A stretch of DNA of 64,000 bases, from the NCBI GenBank assembly GCA_951406725.2, contig OX597831.1, forward strand, positions 80,352,001-80,416,000, written 5' to 3'. A model generated the notes under the pieces. It was not told where the DNA came from. It searched no databases and worked only from the letters and a program-made list of their open reading frames with translations. Made by a program: the position numbers and the translations under genes. Shown in pieces: positions 1,878 through 44,830 of this stretch; position 1 is the first letter of the stretch; each line of letters opens with the position of its first letter. This DNA is from Octopus vulgaris. Taxonomy: Eukaryota.

Positions 1878-2107
1878 ATATATGTAAATAAAATGGGATA
1901 AGAAAATAGAGAGATAATCAATAAATTACCTCTATTTTCTTATCTTATAATAAATAAATATAATATAAAGTACGGTTTTTATAGTTGCCTTACAGTTGAG
2001 TATTAAACTGTAATGTTCAACAGTCTCTGTATAGGTAACTAACCAGTACTTTCATAGGATTTTGCTATGCCTCAGTGAGGTTTATAACCTTTATTTGTAC
2101 TTCTGAA

Positions 2108-2164
<57 letters not shown>

Positions 2165-2191
2165 ATATATATATATATGTATATGTATATA

Positions 2192-2239
<48 letters not shown>

Positions 2240-2254
2240 AAAGAAAATACGCAC

Positions 2255-2490
2255 ACTTACATAGTTTTAATATAATTTTTGAGATATTGACCGGTTTCGC
2301 TATCGCTCTTCATGATATTATGTTTTACTTATTTGAATATGTATTTTTTCTTAAGAAGAAATTTTGTCCATGTTGTGTGTGGTGATATTCACGAGTGAAT
2401 GACTTCAAAAGTAGATAAATAAGGGGAGGTAATTGGTTATCGTGATGAATCCCTCGGTGTACGTTTCGTATATATTAAATAATTGATAGG
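2255..2490 (-). mobile_element. 3' end remnant of a Penelope-like element related to the one at 60942-62170
   Basis: Minus strand has attacctccccttattta (also at about 61902) and a degenerate hammerhead atgaagagcgatagcgaaaccggtc (compare gcgaaaccggtc at about 61998). Confidence 0.6.
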
Positions 2491-2700
2491 GAAGACAGTG
2501 TGTTCTATAAGCTTTATTTAGCACGACAAGGGAGCAGTGCAGATGTAAGCCGAAACGATCGTCGTGTTAAATAAAGCTTACAGTACACTCTGTCTTCACT
2601 ATCAATTATTGAAAAAAACATATACATATATACACACACAGACGTGTGTGTGTGCATCTTGTGTGTGTTGGTGTATATCTATACAGAAATATATATATAT

Positions 2701-2744
<44 letters not shown>

Positions 2745-2745
<1 letters not shown>

Positions 2746-2923
2746 CATTCGCCATGATTGATCGCTAGCCACTAAACTTTTTTCTATTTTCCTTCCCTGT
2801 TTATTTGTGTTCCTTTCTGTTGAAGAGCGCAGGCTCGAAACATAAAAGACTTTCTCACTTCCCGACCGTTGAACTAATACATCTGTTTGTTGTTTCGTCT
2901 TTTGTCTTTTTGTAAATTCTCAC

Positions 2924-2925
<2 letters not shown>
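2745..2925 (+). mobile_element. Short ORF-less hammerhead-motif element (PLE pseudo-LTR-like)
   Basis: cttt-CTGTTGA-A-GAGC-gcag-GCTC-GAAA-CATA-aaag at 2813-2848; homologous to other copies in the window; flanked by (TG)n and (TA)n. Confidence 0.7.
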
Positions 2926-3004
<79 letters not shown>

Positions 3005-3024
3005 GTGTATGTATGTATGTATGC

Positions 3025-3103
<79 letters not shown>

Positions 3104-3194
3104 TCAGTTGGCGACAAAGGTAAGTACATACGAAATGTACTTCGTTTTTTATATTCTTTATGATTTATAGACGGGGTGCGGAGTAAGGAAGAGC

Positions 3195-4010
3195 TAAGTT
3201 GATGATGATGACGACGATGGTGATGATGATGATGATGACGGTGATGGTGATGATGATGACAGCGACGACGAAGACGAAAATTACGATGACAATGACGACA
3301 CGGAAGTTGATGAAAGTGATCATTATGATGAGAAGGATGAAGAGAAGAAAGAGGAACAGGAAGAGTAACAGTAGGAGAAGGATTATGGTGATGATGATGA
3401 TGGTGGTGCTGGTGGCGGTCGTCGTCGTTGTGATGGATGTGACAATGATGATGGGGAGGAGGAGGGGGAGGAAGGTGTAAACAATATCAATGATGACGAC
3501 GGGGATTACGATGTTAATGATGAAGACGATACTCATAACGATGATCGCCAAGAAAGAAAACGTTGTTCCTTCTTCTTCTTTTTCTCCTTCTTCTTCTTCT
3601 TTTTCTCCTTCTTGTCATTCTCCTCCTCCTCGTTTTCTCCTTCCAATTCTTCTTCATCTTCTCCTTCTTCTTCTTCTTCTTCCTCATCCTCTTCTTCCCC
3701 TCCTCTTCTTCTTCCTCCTCCTCATCTTCTTCTTCCCTTCCTCTTCTTTTTCTTTGTCTTCTTCCTCATCTTCTGCTTCTTCTCATTCTTTTCATCTTTC
3801 TTCTTCTCCATCTCATTCTCCTCTTCGTCCTCCTTCTTCTCCTTCCAATTCTTCTTCTTCTTCCATTTCTTCTTCTCCTCTTCCTTCCCATTCTCTTCCT
3901 CCTTCTTTTTCTTCTTTTTCTTCTTCTTCCTCTTCTCCTTGTCCTCCTTCCCATTCTCCCTCTCCTCCTTTTCCAATTCTTCTCCTTTTTCCTCTTCTTC
4001 TTCTTCTCCT

Positions 4011-4041
<31 letters not shown>

Positions 4042-4090
4042 TTTCTTCTCCTTTTCCTCTTCTTCTCCTCATCCTCCTCCTCCCCCTCCT
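3195..4090. repeat. Degenerate (GAT)n followed by (CTT/CCT)n low-complexity tract
   Basis: Direct reading; overlapping ORFs are repeat translations. Confidence 0.93.
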
Positions 4091-4534
4091 AAAATAACGT
4101 AATCATCGGCTTGACAAAACAATTGCAATTTTTGTTTTGTGTTGGTCTTTCCCGACTGAATAAATACCGGTGGTGTAACGCGTTGACACAGCTGCATACC
4201 GGAAGGGGAGATCATCCTGGGTCTTGTTGATACAACATCAGAAGCTTGTAGTAATCCTGCTTGGAAACAAAAAGAAAAACAAATACTACATCCATATATA
4301 CTTAATTACATGCGTACACACAGGCACAGATAGATATTTATATGTTTGTATATCACCTCCGTTGATGGCTTCCGACAAAGATAGATACTAAGGTGAGGTG
4401 AGGTGTGAGGTGTGAGGTGGTGGTGTAAGGGGGAAGGACGCTGTGCACAAATAAGAAAAAAGAAGTTCCCGGGAGAGTTATGAACTACGGTGCTAATTAA
4501 TACGAGTTCAAGAAGGCGAATGCGTCGGTATGCT

Positions 4535-4539
4535 GGTAG

Positions 4540-4580
<41 letters not shown>

Positions 4581-4785
4581 ATGATGATGATGGTGATGAT
4601 GTTGGTGGTGGTGGTGGTGGTGGTGAGGAGGAGGAGGAGGAGGAGAAGGAGGAGGAGGAGGAGGAGAAGGAGGAGGAGGAGAAGGAGGAGGAGGAGGAGA
4701 AGGAGGAGGACGGTGGTGATGAAGATGATGATGATGGCGATATTGATGGCGACGATAGCGGTGGTGGTGGTGATGATGATGATGC

Positions 4786-4816
<31 letters not shown>

Positions 4817-5205
4817 GGTGGTGGTGGTGGTAATGGTGGTGGTGAGGAGGAGGAGGAGGAGGGTTATGACGATGACGAGGATGATTACGACTATGATGAT
4901 GGTGGTGATGATGATGATGATGATGGGGAGGAGGGTGATGGTGGTGATGACGAGGATAATGTTGATGATGACGACGATGGTGATGGCGACGACGATGGTG
5001 ATGGCGACGACGATGGTGGTGGTGGTGGTGATGTTGATGACGGTGATGATGATGATGGTGGTGGTGGTGATTAGGAGAGGAGCAAGAGGATGGTGATGAC
5101 GCTGATGATGATGATGATAATGATGATGATGACGACGACGATGATGATGACGATGATGATTACGATGATGATGGGGGTGGGGGTGGTGGTGGTGATGGTG
5201 ATGAG
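4535..5205. repeat. Degenerate (GAT)/(GGT)/(GAG) trinucleotide tract
   Basis: Direct reading. Confidence 0.93.
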
Positions 5206-5339
5206 GACCGGGACATGCTATGTCGATTACCACGCATGTTTCTCGTTTTTATTCCCCATAACAATGTGCGGGTTCCGATGTCTGGTCAAGGGATCACACC
5301 GAACCATGGCAACCCACTCATTCTAATTCTCGCTGACTC

Positions 5340-5599
5340 CTTTTAGGGTTTTCTCATACCACGTCTTTGCTCTTTGTAGGCCGGGATTTCCACAAACACC
5401 CCACTGGATCATTCTTGCCACATTGTCATGGCTTTTGTATTCGCGTTGTGCCATGCCGTTTCACCCCTCTCTCCACACATTTTACATGTGTCGCTGTCAG
5501 TAACGTTGTCGAGTCTGCACTTCACATAGATAGTCCTTAATACTTATTCATGTGCTGCGCACATAAGTGCTTCTGTTTCTATCTTCAGGTCACTGCTCA

Positions 5600-5600
<1 letters not shown>
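5340..5600 (-). mobile_element. Old R4/Dong-clade retrotransposon fragment (zinc-knuckle region)
   Basis: Manual minus-strand translation SDLKIETEALMCAAHE*VLRTIYVKCRLDNVTDSDTCKMCGERGETAWH matches the R4 ETE..I.AAQ.Q.L.T / CxxC...ET..H region; abuts (ATT)n. Confidence 0.7.
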
Positions 5601-5634
<34 letters not shown>

Positions 5635-5635
<1 letters not shown>

Positions 5636-5952
5636 CCTGCTCAAACGGTCCCTGAATAAGAGTTGTTTAAGGATGTAGCACCCATGTTTCCAAAGGTGAA
5701 TTATCCAAACCTCTAAGAATTCCTTTCAACACATGGCTAGGATGCTCCCTCAACTACTATCGTGATCAGAGATGCACATATCGTCAGCCACCCAGGGACA
5801 TGCTCAACTGGTTAAAGTCAAACAACTGACAAGCAAATATGTGGTATTGAGCAGAATATTTGCTGTAGCCCATCTTTTATACCAAGACAAAACAATGTAC
5901 ATGATAACACTTCCTATCAGTTAAGATCAGAAGGCATGAGAGCCACTGCCTG
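5635..5952 (+). mobile_element. Interspersed repeat, unclassified; related copy at about 52594-52925
   Basis: Both loci share ctgaataag.gttgtttaag...cacccatgtttcca.aggtgaatta...caacacatggcta; both abut (ATT)n. Confidence 0.7.
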
Positions 5953-6718
5953 GTTGTTATTATTGTTATTCTATGTTTGACTTTTGCTTTATGTCTGTAC
6001 AAATTGGCTCCAAGTCTCACCCAGAGACCTCAAGAGAAAACAGGTTGGAAGTTCACGTTGTTGTTATGCCTAGTGTGCCATATATTTGGGGGTTTTTTTG
6101 GTGTTGTACTAGTGAATGTCTAATACATAAATTTAAAAAAAAGAAGTTTGTTTTAAACCTTGGGATTACATATAGAGTATTTTGCGTAGGATATGAGCAG
6201 TTCCCATGAGCACTATCTTTTGAATTTCTGCCATTTTGGGGTTTCCTGGTAGGTAGCAATCAGGTAGCAATCAGCCCCTTTCGCTATCATTTCCAGGGCA
6301 CCTATGACAACAGGTATTGTTTTAGTCTTCAGGTTCCACATTTTGCTGATTTCTATTTCAAGATCTTTATATTTGGTCAGTTTCTGGTAGGTCTTGACAG
6401 ATACGTTTATATCGATTGGGACAATCATATCAATGAGGAGGCATGTTTTTGTCTGAAGTCTTTTACTATGATGTCTGGCCTCTTCGCGTCTATCTTTCTG
6501 TCAGTTTGAATGGTGAAGTTCCAGAGGAGTGAGATGTGGTCATTTTCAAGCACTGGAGGGTGTTCACACCAGTTTTTATCATGGGGCAAGTCCAGGTTTT
6601 TTCAAATTACCCAGTGAATATATTCTGCAGCTCTATCATGCCTGTTGAGATACTCTGTAGGCGCTAGAAGACTGCACTTGGAGACAACATGATCAATGGT
6701 TTCATTTTGTTGTTGATA

Positions 6719-8003
6719 CGAGGGGCGTTCAATAAGTAATGCCCCTGACCCACTTCCCATAGCAGTAGAGCAACGAAACTTGGCACAGTTATTAGTCTTT
6801 TTCTACATAGGAACCACCCAGAGTTACGCATTTCTCTCATCGTTTGATGCGGCTCTGGAGACCGTTTTTGTAGAAGAACCCAGCTTGGTCCTCCAACCTC
6901 AACGTGACTTCAGAAATCAAGGCTGCATCATCTGGGAAATTCTTTGCTTTCAAAAACAACTTCATGATTGGGAAGAGGTGAAAATCAGAGGGTGCAAGGT
7001 CAGGAAAGTAGGGGGTTAGGGTTAGGGAGGAGTTCATAGCCATACGCCTGTGCTTCTGATCTGGCGACAAGCAAGTTGTGGACCGGAGCGTTGTCCTGCA
7101 GGAGGAGGAAGCCTTTGCTGATCTTGCCCCGCCTCTTGATTTTGATAACTTCTCTTAATTTCCTCAAAAGTGAAGCATAATAGGCTCCTGCAATTGTGGT
7201 ACCCTTTGCCAGGAAATCTGTCATCACTACTCCGTCCTGGTCCCAGAAGACTGTGAGCATGACCTTGCCAGCGGAGGGCTGCACCCTTGCCTTCTTTGGA
7301 GGAGGTGAGTCACGGTGCTTTCACTGCATTGACTGGGCTTTGGTCTCTGGATCATCGTGATGGACGCAGGTTTCATCCTGTGTAATCAGTCTTTTGAAAA
7401 ATTTTGACTCATCTTCTTGGCACATCTCCAAATTCACCCTCGAGCACTCGACGCGTTCTTGCTTCTGGAAAGGTGTGAGCAACCTGGGAATCCATCTGGC
7501 AGACACCTTTTGCATATGCAAATGGTCATGAATGATAGTTTCCACAGATCCGATACTAATCTTGACCTCATGGGCTATTTGGCGAATAATTATGCGTCGA
7601 TCTTCCAAAATGGCAGCCTCAACTTGACGGACAGATGCCTCATCAATGGCAGAAGGGGGCGACCAGATCTGAGAGCTGTTTCCACAGAGTTCCGACCATG
7701 TTTGAATTCACGATGCCAGCGTTTTACAAGGTCATATGATGGGGCATCATCACCATAAGTTACTTTCATTTCATAAAAAGTCTCCCGTGGTGTGCGTTCG
7801 TTCAAATACAAAAACCGGATCACTGCTCGACACTCAACAGGCTCCATTTCACACTTGACTCGGTTCAAACACCTGTAAATCAGAAACCACAATTAATTCA
7901 GAGCTGTAATTTGCCACTTACTCTATAGAGATATAAATGATTGCACATGCTAGATCAAACAACTGCAAGTGGGTCAGAGGCATTACTTATTGAACGTCCC
8001 TAG
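6719..8003 (-). mobile_element. Mariner DNA transposon, full length (1285 bp), nested in the R4 element
   Basis: TIRs cgaggggcgttcaataagtaatgcccctgacccactt / aagtgggtcagaggcattacttattgaacgtccctag; TA duplication at 6717-6718 and 8004-8005. Confidence 0.95.
6800..7847 (-). pseudogene. Mariner D,D34D-type transposase, frameshifted
   Basis: MEPVECRAVIRFL...SGRP, ARWIPRLLT, ITQDET, KVMLTVFWD, LLQDNAPVH and PDLAPSDFHLF are spread over four ORFs. Confidence 0.93.
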
Positions 8004-8200
8004 TATACACGACATGTTGGGCTACTGCCGTTCTTTAATATGTTAGCCTGGTAGTTCCTTGTGGGTAGGCATTGATCTTGAGCTGCTACGATAAACCCTT
8101 CTGTTTCAGATTTTAAGCCAGAGGCCATTAGCCATTGATGGGTCAGGGCTTTGTCAACATCTGCATTATTCATTCTCTTTGGGTATTTGCCATTGAGAAG

Positions 8201-9712
8201 TTATCCTTGCCACTTATCATTCAGAATATCTAAGGCAGCAGTTTTAGCACAGGTTTTCATGCGTTTAGCTAATTCTGTGCTTGTTTCTTGTGTCTCTAAT
8301 TCCGGAATTTGTTGTATTCGGAATTCACTTAGATATTCCTTTGCCTGTTTTGCTACTGAGTATGATGCTTTCTTGTTTTCATGTTTTGAGACAAGTTTTA
8401 ACATCCAGTCCTCAGAGTTTTTCAGATAGGTGTCTAGGCCAATTGTAGCAACCTTCATTGTTATTGCCAGTTGTAAAAGCCCACGGCCTCCCTCTTTTCT
8501 TGGTAGATAAAGTCGATCTATATCTGCCTTAGGGTGGTGCATTCTATGCATTGTCGACAGTTTTCGTATTTTTCTGTCAAGATTACATATTTCAGTAATT
8601 GACCAGTTAACGATATTGAAACTGTAAGTCACGACTGGTATGGCTAAAGCATTGATCGCTTCGATCCTGTTTCTCGCATTCAGCTCTGTCTTGAGTATTG
8701 CTCTTACTCTGCGATAACATTCTCTCCTGATCCTTTCCTTCATCACTGAATGCCTTATTCCATCCCCTTCAATTACCCCTCGGTACTTGTAGCTCTCTGC
8801 ATACATATACATATATAGTATCTATATATGTATGTATGCATATACGTATGTATGTATGTGTATATATATGTATACATATGCATATATATAGATATACATA
8901 TACAGATATACATTTATGACATTCTGCTGGTCGAGGTAAACGTTAGATGTTTCTGTTATTTTTCCTTTGATAAATGTAGCTTTTGCACATTTATCGAGGC
9001 CGAATTGCATTCTGATGTCGTCACTGAATTGTTTGACTATCGCTAGTAAGCCCTTGAGTTGTTGGTCATTTTTTGCAAAGAGCTTTAAATCATCCATGTA
9101 AATGAAATGATTTATATTTTTATCAAACATTTTATACCCGTACTGCGCTTCATTGAGCAATTTTGAGAAAGGTATTAAGGCTAGACAAAAGAGGAGTGGT
9201 GATAGTGAATCACCCTGGAAAATGCCACATGAAATTTTTACATCACCAGCATTTAGAGATTCATCGTCACTGTTCAAAGTTAGTGTGGTTCTCCATGATT
9301 TCATACTTACAGACAAAATGTTTCGCAGAGCAGGCGCTATTTAGTACATTTCTAGGCAATTCTTTATCCAGCTATGTGGTAGGCTATCAAAAGCCTTTTT
9401 ATAGTCTATCCAGGCTATTGACAAGTTTTTCTGTCGTTTGTGACAATCTTCTAAGATCTTCTTATTGATGAGTAGTTGATCTTTACAACCATAGGATCCA
9501 CGTTTACATCCTTTCTGTTCATTAGGGAATATGCTGCTGTCTGTTAAAAAACTATAGGTATATTCCGTCAGGACAGATGTTAGCGTTTTATACATAGTTG
9601 TTAAGCAGGTTATGGGTCTATAGTTTTTTGGTTCATTTGTTTCTTCACTTTTTGGAAGCAGGAATGTTAACCCATTAACTATCCAAGGAGGCATCCTACT
9701 AGGGTGTTGCAA
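8201..9712 (-). pseudogene. Reverse transcriptase domain of the R4/Dong element, interrupted by a stop and a microsatellite
   Basis: ORFs 9341-9712, 8822-9316 and 8201-8812 carry consecutive RT motifs; a TA-rich repeat interrupts at about 8800-8915. Confidence 0.9.
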
Positions 9713-37769: not shown

Positions 37770-38245
37770 ATTCTCTCACAAGGCATTGGTCGGCCCGGAG
37801 CTATAGTAAGAAGACACTTGCCAAAGGGGCAGTGGGGCTGAACCCAATACCAAATGGTTGCAAAACGAACTTTTCAGACTCATAACGAAAACAAAAAGAA
37901 GATATGTCTAATTATTCTACATCAAGCTAATGAGGATCCGAGATGTACCTTCTTCTAAAATTGGTAGGGTTCTTAAAGAATCAAGTCTCTTTTTCTTTAA
38001 ATTATGAATTTTAAAAATCATATCAAAATGCATTCATCTAAAGATTTCCTGCAATAAGCGTAGCTGTGTGTTTACGTTCTTGTAACTTTGCAGTTCGGCA
38101 AAAGAGACCGATAGAATAAGCACCAGGCTTTAAAAATGGAAAAAAAAAGATACTGGGCTTGATTCATTCTACAAAAAAATTCTTCAAGGCGGTGCACCAG
38201 CATCGCCGCAGTCTAATGACCGAAACAACTAAAAGATCAAAGATA
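37770..38245. mobile_element. SINE family A fragments (37770-37880 minus; 38070-38245 plus)
   Basis: Match head and tail of 38417-38850. Confidence 0.7.
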
Positions 38246-38416
38246 GTTTCAGAAATAATTTTTTAGAATATTTAACCCGTTCTAACCTATGGTCACTAAA
38301 ACAGATTGAGTGTCCAATCAGCTGGGCCGAGTCATCGAACTCCAAACATTCACACCCAATAATCGATGATGTGGTTTCGGATATGATTTATTTTAGTGTT
38401 GTAATTTCTTATTCCA

Positions 38417-38572
38417 GAGTGGCTGTGTGGTAAGTAGCTTGCTTGCTAACTACATGCTTCCGGGTTCAGTCCCACTGCGTGGCAACCTGGGCAAAGTGTC
38501 TTCTACTATAGCCTCGAGCCGACCAAAGCCTTGTGAGGGGATTTGGTAGACGGAAACTGAAAGAAGCCCGTC

Positions 38573-38630
<58 letters not shown>

Positions 38631-38850
38631 CTGTGTATATGCTTGTGTGTCTGTGTTTGTCCCCACAACATCGCTTAACAACCAATGCTGGTGTGATTAC
38701 GTCCCCTTAACCTAGCGGTTCGGCAAAAGAGACCGATAGAATAAGTACTAGGCTTACAAAGAATAAGTCCTGGGGTCGATTTTCTCGACTAAAGGCGGTG
38801 CTCCAGCATGCCACAATCAAATGCCTGAAATAAGTGAAAGAGTAAAAGAG
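38417..38850 (+). mobile_element. tRNA-derived SINE family A (octopus-type), full length with internal (TA)n
   Basis: A-box-like gtggctgtgtggta, B-box-like ggttcagtccc, conserved body and aaagagt tail repeats; multiple copies in the window. Confidence 0.88.
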
Positions 38851-38926
38851 TAACCTACGTGGTATGTTTGACATGCGACTAGCATGGCTATTTCCTCTTA
38901 TTTTACGTATGGTTGTAAGTCCTAGG

Positions 38927-38985
<59 letters not shown>

Positions 38986-38994
38986 CATTATTAA

Positions 38995-39600
38995 GGCGGC
39001 GAAATGCGAGCCGTATTTCGTCTGCCGTTACGTTCTGAGTTCAAATTCCGCCGAGGTCGACTTTCCCTTTCATCCTTTCAATGTCGATAAATTAAGTACC
39101 AGTTACGCACTAGGGTCGATATAATCGACTTAATCCGTTTGTCTCTCCTTGTTTGTTCTCTCTGTGTTTGGCCCTTTGTGGGTAATAAAGAAATAGGTAT
39201 TTCGTCTGTCTTTACATTCTGAGTTCACATACCGCCGAGGTCGACTTTCATCCTTTCGGGGTCGATAAATTAAGTACCAGTTGAGTACTGGAGTCGATCT
39301 AATCGACTTTTCCCTCCCCAAAACTTTGGGGCCAGGTGGCTCGAGTAGAAAAGGATATTATTATTATTACTATTATGATTATTATTTTTTTTTTAAGGCG
39401 GCGAGCTGGCAGATCGTTAGCACGCGAAATGCTTAGCGTTATTTCGTTTGCATCTACGTTCCGAGCTCGAATTCTGACGAGGTCGACATTGCCTTTCATC
39501 CTTTAAGGATCCATAAATTAAGTACCAGTTATGTACTGGGGTCGATGTAATTGCCTACTCCCTTTCCCCTATATTTCAAGCCTTCTACCTATAGTAAAAA
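38995..39600 (+). mobile_element. Three tandem or partial copies of SINE family B, flanked by (ATT)n
   Basis: Repeated gagttcaaattccgccgaggtcgactt...catcctttcggggtcgataaattaagtaccagtt...ggtcgat core; B-box-like gagttcaaatt. Confidence 0.85.
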
Positions 39601-39952: not shown

Positions 39953-40393
39953 CACTCACACATGTATTTAAATATATTTATATATATATATCACCGTTTA
40001 CATAGCCTGTGTTTCTTATAGATAGGTGCGTGTGTGTATGTTTGAGTGTGTGTGTATGTATGAGTGTGTATAGTGTGTGTGTGTCTGTTTATATGCATAT
40101 ATGTATGTTCATACATCTTTGTATATTCAAGAATATATTTATGCATGTGATCGTACGTGTTTGTATGTATGTATGAATGTATGTATGTATATATGTATGC
40201 ATATATGTATGTATGTATGTATTTTTTGTATGTATATAGTTGATGTTATTCGAGAACGCACGAGAGTTTCGTGAATTAGTAAGTGGCAACTCACAAAATT
40301 CCCGGACTTTGAGTCACTCTGTTAATTCTGCTAAATATTAATAAAAATATACATACATTCGTATTTTGAGTTCTATTTTGCCTGTTTGCATCA

Positions 40394-40460
40394 AAATCGA
40401 ACTAGGCTCCTAAGAGCCCATGGCCAAACTCCATGGGCTCTTAGGAGCCTAGTTCGATTT
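40394..40460. repeat. Perfect 30-bp inverted repeat with 7-nt loop
   Basis: aaatcgaactaggctcctaagagcccatgg-ccaaact-ccatgggctcttaggagcctagttcgattt. Confidence 0.95.
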
Positions 40461-40508
40461 GTTTTGCTCCGCCTCTGTTCTGTTTTTGTTTTTTCCCAAC
40501 GGATTTCC

Positions 40509-40601
40509 TATTTCTTCCTGAAGAGAAAGACACAATATGGTCTCATTATTCAATCGGAATTTGGTAAATTGTGCCTTTCGAAACACGTGTAGAATGAAAT
40601 A
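40509..40601 (+). ncRNA. Type I hammerhead ribozyme (canonical core)
   Basis: Stem I tatttcttc / gaa-t-gaaata; core CTGAAGA (40518-40524); stem II gaaagacacaat / attgtgcctttc; GAAA (40580-40583); palindromic stem III AC-acgt-GT; GUA cleavage triplet ending at 40591. Confidence 0.75.
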
Positions 40602-40646
40602 AAACGATTTCTGTTCAATCTTCGTTCAACTCCATTTCTTCAATTC

Positions 40647-40796
<150 letters not shown>

Positions 40797-40983: not shown

Positions 40984-41172
40984 TGTGTACCGTTAGCGAT
41001 TTTTTCCTCTGTCTTCCCTTCTCTGGATCTTTCCTTCACCTATGTTTCCGACGAAGAGCTCCGCTCGAAACGTTAAACCCTCCTTCTTTCCTTCTTTCCT
41101 GAGCGTCCAATAATACTATATTTGTTCCAAGTCCTCCCGTTGTTGTGTTTTTTTGTGTTTTCTTGTTTGGAT

Positions 41173-41178: not shown

Positions 41179-41213
<35 letters not shown>

Positions 41214-41218
<5 letters not shown>

Positions 41219-42868
41219 TGTTACATTACTCGGTAGTCAAGATAAAACTCTGAGTTTCAGATGCCGAAGTGGAAATCCACAACACCATCTCTTCGGTTAT
41301 CTGGCTATTTGAAAACGTTATGAAAAAATACCGTTAAAAATGAAGGGAAATTACTCTGTTATAACTCTGCTTTGCCTGCGTACTTATACATCGCTCGCAT
41401 TTTTCGTCATAAAAATTATATAAAAATACATAAAAAATATATAAAAATATATAAAAATATATAAAATCTTCTTGGGACATAACACAGAAAGCATGTTCTA
41501 TCCGTTTTCTTTAGGGGACCAAAAACGTAACAGAAATTTAGTCACATGTGGGCATGATCCGAAAAGTTCTGTCCTTGTATTTAGACATGTGGTAGGGTCT
41601 AAGCTGCTTTTCCAGATAAGCCATCTCTCCATGTCGCATAAACCGCACCTTCCGCTGCCGTTAGTATAGGGCTTACATCTGGCCAAAATCTTCCATTGTA
41701 TGTTATAATCGACACCTTTATCTCTTAAAGACCAAATATGATTGGATAATTGTGTCGCTTTTCTTTTGTTCCAGTGCCTAAAAGCTCAAAGTGTGGTTAT
41801 TGAACCTGGTCTTGAAATTATCCCTCTGTCAGGCCCACGTATTTCTTCAGTCAAAACGGTGTCTTTAGTGGTTATAGAGTTTACGGTAGCCTCATATATG
41901 ATGGTCTTGGACATGCAAGCTCCATTTAGCGGGCACAATTCTTTATTCCTGCATGAACAGCTGTTTTCTTCTTGTGTTTTTTGTATGTTATGATTGATTA
42001 TGTTTTTAAAATTGGTAGTTGAACTAAAACTAATTTTTAAATTGTGTCTATTGAAGAGTTTCCTATAAGCATGGTTAACTGGAAAATGTCTATCTATCAG
42101 TGCTAGGAAATATTTACCTATATTGAAGGCCACCTCGGGTGAGTAAGGGGGCGTAAACCAGATGACCTTCCTATTTCTATTATTCCTTTTCCTTATTGTT
42201 GGGCTGGTGATAGGTGTATATTTTATTTTTCAGCTAAAACCACTATCTTTTAAAGCTTTATTATAAACTGGGGCAACGCTATTGAAGATGTCCTCATTAG
42301 ATGAGAGGCTAGAAATCCTATTACTAATATTTTTAACTAAATTTTTGAATACTATAGGGGGATGGCATGAACCTACATTAATATAACTTAGTCTATCATT
42401 GGGCTTCCTATAAGGCTTATAAATATTATTATTAAGATCTAAGGAAACGTCTAAGAAATTGACAACCGTCAGGTTAGTGTCTATAGTTATACTAAGTCCG
42501 AAGTGTTTCATTAACTGGATAATATCCTTCCTAAAACGATCTTGTGCTGGTCCATTTGTATTAGCTGTTAAGGCGAGGGCATCATCTTTGTAGATGGCGA
42601 AATGTACGTTAGGGAATGTCTTACTGAAGGTATCTAGGAGAAAGAGTCCAATTAGATCTAGATGCCTGCCCCATCATATGAACCCATGCTCACATCGAAA
42701 GCGCTCGTGTCGTGTTTTTACCCACTTGCATTCTCACTGAAAAGTAATGTCTTAGCATGAAGAAATACTGAAAATTAAGACCTTATCATGGTACTAATTT
42801 CTATGAAGTCACTAGCGAAGATTAGGCTTTATCTAGCAGTTCTTTAGAGATAGAGGAGGCATAAAAAT
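41214..42868 (-). mobile_element. Penelope-like element, left arm of palindrome (5'-truncated)
   Basis: Reverse complement of 42871-44516 with scattered small indels; encodes the same RT and GIY-YIG peptides. Confidence 0.9.
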
Positions 42869-42870
42869 TG

Positions 42871-44584
42871 ATTTTTATGCCTCTATCTCTAAAGAACTGC
42901 TAGATAAAGCCCTAATCTTCGCTAGTGACTTCATAGAAATTAGTACCAATGATAAGGATATAATCTTCCATGCTAGAAAGACATTACTTTTCAGTGAGAA
43001 TGCAAAGTGGGTAAAAAACACCGACACGGAGGGCGCTGATGTGAGCATGGGTTCATATGATGGGGCAGGCATCTGTGATCTAATTGGACTCTTTCTCCTA
43101 GATACCTTCAGTAAGACATTCCCTAACGTACATTTCGCCATCTACAAAGATGATGCCCTCGCCTTAACAGCTAATACAAATGGACCAGCACAAGATCGTT
43201 TTAGGAAGGATATTATCCAGTTAATGAAACACTTCGGACTTAGTATAACTATAGACACTAACCTGACGGTTGTCAATTTCTTAGACGTTTCCTTAGATCT
43301 TAATAATAATATTTATAAGCCTTATAGGAAGCCCAATGATAGACTAAGTTATATTAATGTAGGTTCATGCCATCCCCCTATAGTATTCAAAAATTTAGTT
43401 AAAAATATTAGTAATAGGATTTCTAGCCTCTCATCTAATGAGGACATCTTCAATAGCGTTGCCCCAGTTTATAATAAAGCTTTAAAAGATAGTGGTTTTA
43501 GCGAAAAATAAAATATACACCTATCACCAGCCCAACAATAAGGAAAAGGAATAATAGAAATAGGAAGGTCATCTGGTTTACGCCCCCTTACTCACCCGAG
43601 GTGGCCTTCAATATAGGTAAATATTTCCTAGCACTGATAGATAGACATTTTCCAGTTAACCATGCTTATAGGAAACTCTTCAATAGACACAATTTAAAAA
43701 TTAGTTTTAGTTCAACTACCAATTTTAAAAACATAATCAATCATAACATACAAAAAACACAAGAAGAAAACAGCTGTTCATGCAGGAATAAAGAATTGTG
43801 CCCGCTAAATGGAGCTTGCATGTCCAAGACCATCATATATGAGGCTACCGTAAACTCTATAACCACTAAAGACACCGTTTTGACGAAGAAATACGTGGGC
43901 CTGACAGAGGGTAATTTCAAGACCAGGTTCAATAACCACACTTTGAGCTTTAGGCACTGGAACAAAAGAAAAGCGACACAATTATCCAATCATATTTGGT
44001 CTTTAAGAGATAAAGGTGTCGATTATAACATACAATGGAAGATTTTGGCCAGATGTAAGCCCTATACTAACGGCAGCGGAAGGTGCGGTTTATGCGACAT
44101 GGAGAGATGGCTTATCTGGAAAAGCAGCTTAGACCCTACCACATGTCTAAATACAAGGACAAGAACTTTTCGGATCATGCCCACATGTGACTAAATTTCT
44201 GTTACGTTTTTGGTCCCCTAAAGAAAACGGATAGAACATGCTTTCTGTGTTATGTCCCAAGAAGATTTTATATATTTTTATATATTTTTATATATTTTTT
44301 ATGTATTTTTATATAATTTTTATGACGAAAAATGCGAGCGATGTATAAGTACGCAGGCAAAGCAGAGTTATAACAGAGTAATTTCCCTTCATTTTTAACG
44401 GTATTTTTTCATAACGTTTTCAAATAGCCAGATAACCGAAGAGATGGTGTTGTGGATTTCCACTTCGGCATCTGAAACTCAGAGTTTTATCTTGACTACC
44501 GAGTAATGTAACATATTGTATAAATTTCCTCTATTTACATAATATTGAGGTCTCTTTCTTTCTTTTGTTATCTTACCGTTTTAT

Positions 44585-44649: not shown

Positions 44650-44830
44650 GTTGAAATTTACAGAAAAACAAAATACAAAGACAGGTATATATGAACAACA
44701 AACGGATGTATTAGTTTAACGCTCGGGTAAATGAGTAAGTCTTTTACGTTTCGAGCCTACACTCTTCAGCAGAAAGGAACACAGAAATAAACAGAGAGAA
44801 TATTAAAGAACTTATGGATTTCGCAATCCA
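44650..44830 (-). mobile_element. Short ORF-less hammerhead-motif element
   Basis: Minus strand cttt-CTGCTGA-A-GAG-tgtagg-CTC-GAAA-CGTA-aaag (44741-44776); same family as the 2745 and 11835 copies. Confidence 0.72.

Follow-up and report, generated by a model that had tools for sequence, protein, structure and literature searches.

The window analysed here is a stretch of 64,000 nucleotides of the Octopus vulgaris genome (contig OX597831.1, positions 80,352,001 to 80,416,000). Between microsatellites it holds a short island without an open reading frame, and the question is why a perfect hairpin and a hammerhead ribozyme stand there side by side. The original prediction regarded the island as one unit of about 350 bp, a solo pseudo-LTR or a non-autonomous ribozyme-bearing retroelement. 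Our results indicate that it is very probably a 5′-truncated pseudo-LTR, inserted at a TA repeat, of a Hydra-like Penelope retrotransposon (PLE) that is young and autonomous, with a hairpin that is likely the remnant of an inverted arm. The features of the locus, in window coordinates, are as follows:

40261 to 40397, plus strand: fragment of an older, unrelated high-copy repeat that carries a small fold-back of its own and a decayed hammerhead half; left flank, not part of the young insertion
40394 to 40430, minus strand: inverted second arm, a 37-nt stub (element −167 to −131, counted from the cleavage site) that forms the hairpin loop and left arm
40431 to 40647, plus strand: direct arm, the 5′-truncated pseudo-LTR of a young Hydra-like PLE (−160 to +56), with the family's "short" 3′ end
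40509 to 40601, plus strand: type I hammerhead motif (core 40518–40524 and 40580–40583), read from the sequence and backed by covariation in nine sister sequences
40509 to 40517, plus strand: 5′ strand of stem I, pairing with the 3′ strand 40592–40601 (nine pairs, one bulge)
40518 to 40524, plus strand: CUGAAGA core
40525 to 40536 with 40568 to 40579, plus strand: stem II, 11 of 12 pairs, one A–C mismatch
40525 to 40579, plus strand: stem-loop II, 55 nt
40580 to 40582, plus strand: GAA
40583 to 40590, plus strand: palindromic stem III, ACACGUGU
ending at 40591, plus strand: GUA, predicted cleavage after 40591
40650 to 40796, no strand: (TA)n microsatellite, detected as an array, adjoining the direct arm; the insertion target

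The supposed single island is in fact two elements. Its left part, 40261–40397, gave 1,251 first-look candidates in the genome and its best-matching other copies are 81–90% identical. Relatives of this repeat share the same terminus and are found as inverted pairs. We considered a MITE and dropped it, as the ends of the inverted copies vary. Relatives at loci L036–L044 have a stem II, GAAAC and a 4-bp stem III, and the window copy is truncated within its hammerhead core. In several of these relatives the first core half reads TTGATAA, which would be the U3–A8 variant named by Cervera and de la Pena (2014, PMC4209133). Further left in the window, at 38066–39560, short interspersed repeats of the direct repeat families D7–D9 and D14 occur in several copies.

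The right part is younger: the direct arm is 99–100% identical to many other copies and 95% identical to a full-length tandem unit. The predicted 30-bp perfect inverted repeat is present (arms 40394–40423 and 40431–40460, 7-nt loop), it lies 48 nt from stem I of the hammerhead as described, and the region 40380–40645 folds with z = −8.6. On the minus strand 40394–40430 matches the native element at 95–100%. The hairpin thus arises where two head-to-head arms overlap; the RNA of the native element does not contain it. The suggestion that it is a fold-back product of reverse transcription was right, and its proposed role as a dsRNA substrate finds no support, since the native RNA lacks it and junction positions differ between copies. 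"Solo LTR" is not the proper term either, because the locus is a 5′-truncated two-armed insertion with the second arm reduced to 37 nt. How this arm became so short is a separate matter. The left end of the hairpin overlaps the end of the older repeat by 4 nt (40394–40397), and most of the long arm, together with a TA tract on the left, was probably lost by a deletion at this microhomology; judged by that single overlap, deletion is the simplest account of the stub. A similar stub without the remainder of its arm is found at locus L228. One may ask instead whether the hairpin dates from the insertion itself, as a second arm that was aborted, or whether it is a dsRNA or miRNA-like hairpin used by the host. 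The perfect 30-bp pairing, further stubs at L228 and L238 and, for use by the host, weak Rfam miRNA matches far below the gathering score would agree with such readings. The pairing is perfect because the insertion is young, nothing points to use by the host, and the 4-nt overlap with the older repeat and the missing TA tract at the left end, which the family shows at 105 of 107 3′ ends, argue for a deletion. We consider both readings improbable. The lone window copy most likely plays no role itself; it is ordinary transposon debris.

The family to which this debris belongs is large and coding. Exact matches to a 23-mer that spans the cleavage site number 1,868 in the genome (control 0), so the sequence is far from single-copy; insertions are fewer than 1,868, as many of them carry two copies of the 23-mer. 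Region 40490–40640 gave 1,316 first-look candidates, and the 40 of these that were scored yielded 46 matches at 99–100%. On contig C1 four hammerheads follow each other at 3,624–3,625 bp, and partial tandem units are found at L077–L079. The 3,624-bp tandem unit contains an uninterrupted ORF of 895 amino acids (protein P0001) with reverse transcriptase (RT) and GIY-YIG regions; the hammerhead cleavage site lies 670 nt past its stop codon and 268 nt ahead of the next AUG. Long copies continue upstream into the ORF, and one 3.1-kb inverted insertion with 99.2% identity contains it. The tandem array and the partner PLE ORF that the original prediction suggested looking for both exist, which upholds the pseudo-LTR with a dimer-type hammerhead (palindromic stem III) and removes the description of the element as non-autonomous. 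Contigs of four presumed-RNA runs cover 30 of 30 bins of the unit, give no information on ends, strand or level, and show no intron-like joint.

Pfam and PDB searches with the 895-aa ORF returned no significant match, and the RT and GIY-YIG domains were called from motifs and by comparison by eye with sequences in the supplement of Craig et al. (2021, PMC8557442). P0001 has YRDD and a C-terminal VYQC...YVG region of GIY-YIG type. It has 106 homologs, YRDD being present in 104; one named homolog is from Argonauta. DKT is at residue 122 (DKT/S in 93 of the 106 homologs) and G.KF is absent. RIRWL takes the place equivalent to RWK, which occurs in exact form in 48 of the 106. CNLC is at 855 and CPH at 883, from whose positions CCHH was judged absent; the whole protein has only 9 Cys. 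The CxCX5C linker zinc finger, present in 65 of the 106 homologs, is absent from P0001, which has a Ser/Asn-rich region where it is expected, and also from the ORF of the family's second subfamily. Because the linker is lacking we call P0001 Hydra-like on motifs and not a member of the Hydra clade. With that clade, as described in PMC8557442 (Hydra-1_Obim), it shares a single ORF with RT and C-terminal GIY-YIG, DKT, CxxC and CxH flanking the conserved endonuclease E and N, (TA)n targeting, a type I hammerhead near the 3′ end and inverted 5′-truncated copies. The window family differs in its 3,624-bp unit (Hydra elements are generally under 3 kb), in RWL for RWK and in the missing linker, and its hammerhead sequence is not that of Hydra-1_Obim.

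The way in which these elements insert can be read from the copies. We analysed 64 chromosome-1 loci taken from the first 100 listed matches of the 23-mer pattern, leaving out six duplicates of one insertion, the separately fetched long tandem loci and the last few listed; a pattern that spans the cleavage site favours uncut copies, which half-site searches partly repaired. Among 45 inverted junctions, 37 join one short and one long 3′ end, one joins two short ends, and the remaining seven include an arm that lies internally, is shortened or escapes classification for another reason. The 107 mapped 3′ ends comprise 53 short, 52 long and 2 others (+5 and +146). TA repeats adjoin 105 of these 107 ends, and the TA runs start at +49 to +74 for short and at +210 to +225 for long ends (one outlier at +280), so that the one-sided tail is about 160 nt. 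TTCAC and AT-rich sequence precede both 3′-end sites. The 5′ ends of short copies are scattered at varying positions, and short ORF-less copies are the majority. We propose that the endonuclease would nick both strands of the TA repeat and that uncut tandem RNA would serve as template, each nick priming cDNA synthesis at either of two fixed positions inside it, where UUCAC is followed by an AU-rich stretch able to pair with the target. Both cDNAs would terminate early and be joined head-to-head, in many cases at short palindromes native to the element. This two-nick model is drawn from insertion shapes only. An inverted 5′-truncated arm with a one-sided tail is known for PLEs (PMC8557442, PMC3846280). 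The shape of the window-family insertions fits two-site internal priming on uncut RNA, for which Poseidon PAc of Anolis offers an in vitro precedent (Frangieh et al. 2024, PMC11167929): two internal initiation sites 3′ of the hammerhead, a one-sided tail, a mainly uncut RNA template and an AT-rich target. In PAc the hammerhead overlaps the ORF start and the initiation sites lie 111–118 nt inside the ORF, whereas in the window family both sites are ahead of the AUG and about 160 nt apart.

Other PLEs are found in the same surroundings. At window positions 41207–44525 lies a second, distinct Hydra-like PLE, an inverted insertion of 3.3 kb with two arms that is 97.6% self-complementary. Both arms match RT and endonuclease, and a hammerhead whose core reads CCGAAGA is found in the right arm at 44436–44486. 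Minimal hammerhead motifs with a short stem II at 41048–41074 (plus strand) and 44745–44769 (minus strand), one of which has a CCGACGA core, are probably the ends of other PLE families. Elsewhere in the genome, an open frame of 1,020 codons (L031:2-3061) of a different PLE with DKG and C-terminal GIY-YIG, which by its motifs we take to be Neptune-like, adjoins an insertion of the window family. An RT fragment of another Hydra-like family (L032:2735-4243) lies directly past the long end of a window-family insertion, so PLEs cluster in the same TA tracts.

With half-site searches we asked whether RNA cut by the ribozyme is copied. Only five genome copies diverge right after the site, all five continue as element sequence, and there is no insertion ending at the cleavage cut among the copies that diverge there. 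Right before +1, 17 matches from 16 insertions diverge; these are four point changes, one internal deletion and about 11 arms that start at +1, and the arms of this last kind mean that cut RNA may sometimes be copied. Of 84 near-site junctions 50 were listed and judged by eye: eight fall in a band of six lengths at the site (about five expected), which is no clear spike, and ten fold back at one native 6-mer palindrome. It appears that uncut RNA is the template for most copies, that cut RNA makes at most a minor contribution, and that the hammerhead most likely processes tandem transcripts into units rather than setting insertion ends. We also observed a cluster of 5′ ends at −176 to −164, just upstream of window position 40431, with 11 of 48 starts against 2.7 expected (among starts from −260 to −30, with each arm of an insertion entering the count). 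A transcription start could produce this cluster, and palindrome-driven fold-back explains it equally well.

The same data bear on whether the island could be the monomer of a non-autonomous retrozyme, a small RNA that is cut by its hammerhead, circularised and reinserted. Metazoan non-LTR retrozymes, as described in PMC7229834 and bioRxiv 10.64898/2026.07.22.740005, are likewise dispersed non-coding repeats with a type I hammerhead. A palindromic stem III and the predominance of short ORF-less copies would suit them, as would a tandem repeat of another family present in this genome. That repeat, at L179 (G000:C1:5011305-5012441), is retrozyme-like in appearance, with a non-coding 534-bp period and a long-stem hammerhead in each unit. 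In the window family, the sequence of long copies leads directly to the RT-endonuclease ORF and the tandem period of 3,624 bp is coding; the repeat forms the terminus of an element with an ORF, without the tandem unit of 170–400 nt of non-LTR retrozymes. Its short copies are variable truncations with scattered 5′ ends and no unit length, and the cleavage site is the end of no copy. We regard the retrozyme reading as largely refuted for this family and very improbable for the island, and keep to the truncated PLE end.

The complete type I hammerhead motif with CUGAAGA, a stem II with one mismatch, GUA and a 9-bp stem I with one bulge is confirmed in the sequence. The expected 12-bp stem II stands; its large loop is not a plain one, as it holds a conserved 4-bp apical hairpin. 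The search of Rfam gave no hit at the gathering score, and none of 36 hits at E≤10 belongs to a hammerhead family. Taken by itself, the 101-nt motif has no better fold than its shuffles (z = −0.06). With both of these negative, support for the hammerhead comes from comparison. A long-stem pattern with the window palindrome has 2,898 genome matches against 3 for the reversed control, so the hammerhead match is not due to chance. In nine sister sequences, which were hand-picked and whose kinship inflates the shuffle test, 83.9% of cells are paired, as compared to 36–51% in slid controls, the apical hairpin being paired in 92%. Two-sided changes occur in 12 of 29 pairs, in stem II in 7 of 12. The stems thus covary across sister families, and the full core is present in 71 of 88 family copies examined. 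In 48 motifs from 40 hand-picked loci, one per apparent family, stem I has at least 3 pairs in 71%, as compared to 12% with swapped partners, and basal stem II has 6.0 of 8 paired against 4.3. The centre is palindromic in 35, wobble-paired in 10 and neither in 3, though conservation of core and palindrome between families is partly imposed by the search patterns.

The predicted folding of this ribozyme speaks in part against activity. Stem III has 2 bp in the monomer and 8 bp only between two molecules, the ACACGUGU duplex being predicted at −10.3 kcal/mol. A fold with the core open costs 1.9 kcal/mol over the minimum when 105 nt are modelled. When 400 nt of native context are included, stems I and II have a predicted pairing probability of 0.00, as rival hairpins outcompete them. 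For the hammerhead we predict slow cutting that takes place only in a dimer of two units joined by ACACGUGU, and we lean slightly towards measurable cleavage as a dimer or with protein. PMC4209133 reports poor in vitro cleavage by PLE hammerheads and PMC11167929 a PAc hammerhead that required protein. Alternatively, the ribozyme folds and is catalytically marginal, the long stem II serving internal priming by binding protein or as a spacer, or aiding translation of the downstream ORF. Across unrelated families stem-loop II stays long (42–68 nt in the 48 motifs) and the priming ends lie 50–225 nt downstream; PMC11167929 describes catalytic mutants without effect on insertion in vitro, and PMC13725137 a 5′ UTR self-cleavage that drives cap-independent translation. 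The latter precedent is viral and depends on cleavage, and the intact core, GUH site, dimer palindrome and compensatory changes point to selection on cleavage geometry. We find this alternative rather unlikely and favour slow cleavage of dimers.

Long stem II is widespread in the genome. The pattern CTGANGA-N40-68-GAAAC-N4-GTH has 39,227 matches (control 1,576) and its N9-39 form 18,110 (control 1,523), some sites fitting both patterns. The long-stem set has about 37,000 matches above control. About 54,000 matches above control in this genome compare with about 2,000–9,000 per genome in PMC4209133, where search rules differ; axolotl retrozymes reach 126,247 in PMC7229834. A long-stem hammerhead is tied to an ORF only for the window family and two sisters (L088 and L091); weak upstream ORF matches were found in only 2 of the 40 loci (L171 and L182). 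Two large long-stem families of 445 and 507 matches have no same-strand upstream ORF of Hydra or Neptune type within the 1.5–3 kb fetched. It is possible, although we think it doubtful, that the motif belongs to an unrecognised subclass of dimer hammerheads with long stem II that comprises dozens of families, dominates this genome and escapes Rfam and published descriptors; its stem-loop would gate cleavage or position the two priming sites, and the window family would target TA without the linker zinc finger proposed for that task.

The architecture as such is already known. In PMC4209133, metazoan PLE hammerheads are type I with a palindromic stem III predicted to be dimer-dependent, and they lie in pseudo-LTRs with thousands of dispersed truncated copies. 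Helix II is the part that departs from these descriptions, with 11–12 bp and an apical hairpin here against 6–8 bp for the "large" form in PMC4209133, and a 55-nt stem-loop against stems of 3–7 bp and loops of 3–10 nt in the Hydra table of PMC8557442. PLE-X1_sMoe, in the supplement of the same paper, gives some precedent for long forms with its 9-bp stem and long loop. We also considered the Naiad "half cores" of that paper as long-stem hammerheads and rejected them: the palindromic motif is absent from its supplement and the printed Naiad ends have a different order. The tail of about 160 nt compares with 30–40 bp for PLEs in PMC8557442. In the literature searched, whose coverage of long stem II variants is incomplete, there is no description of a 55-nt stem-loop II, a 160-nt tail or TA targeting without the linker.

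These results suggest that hammerhead counts in such genomes are underestimated by descriptors with a short stem II. The TA targeting of the family is strict even though it lacks the linker zinc finger with which PMC8557442 associates targeting. Being young, with intact ORFs and a strict short/long-end rule, the family is a ready in vitro system for the inverted insertions and tails of PLEs.
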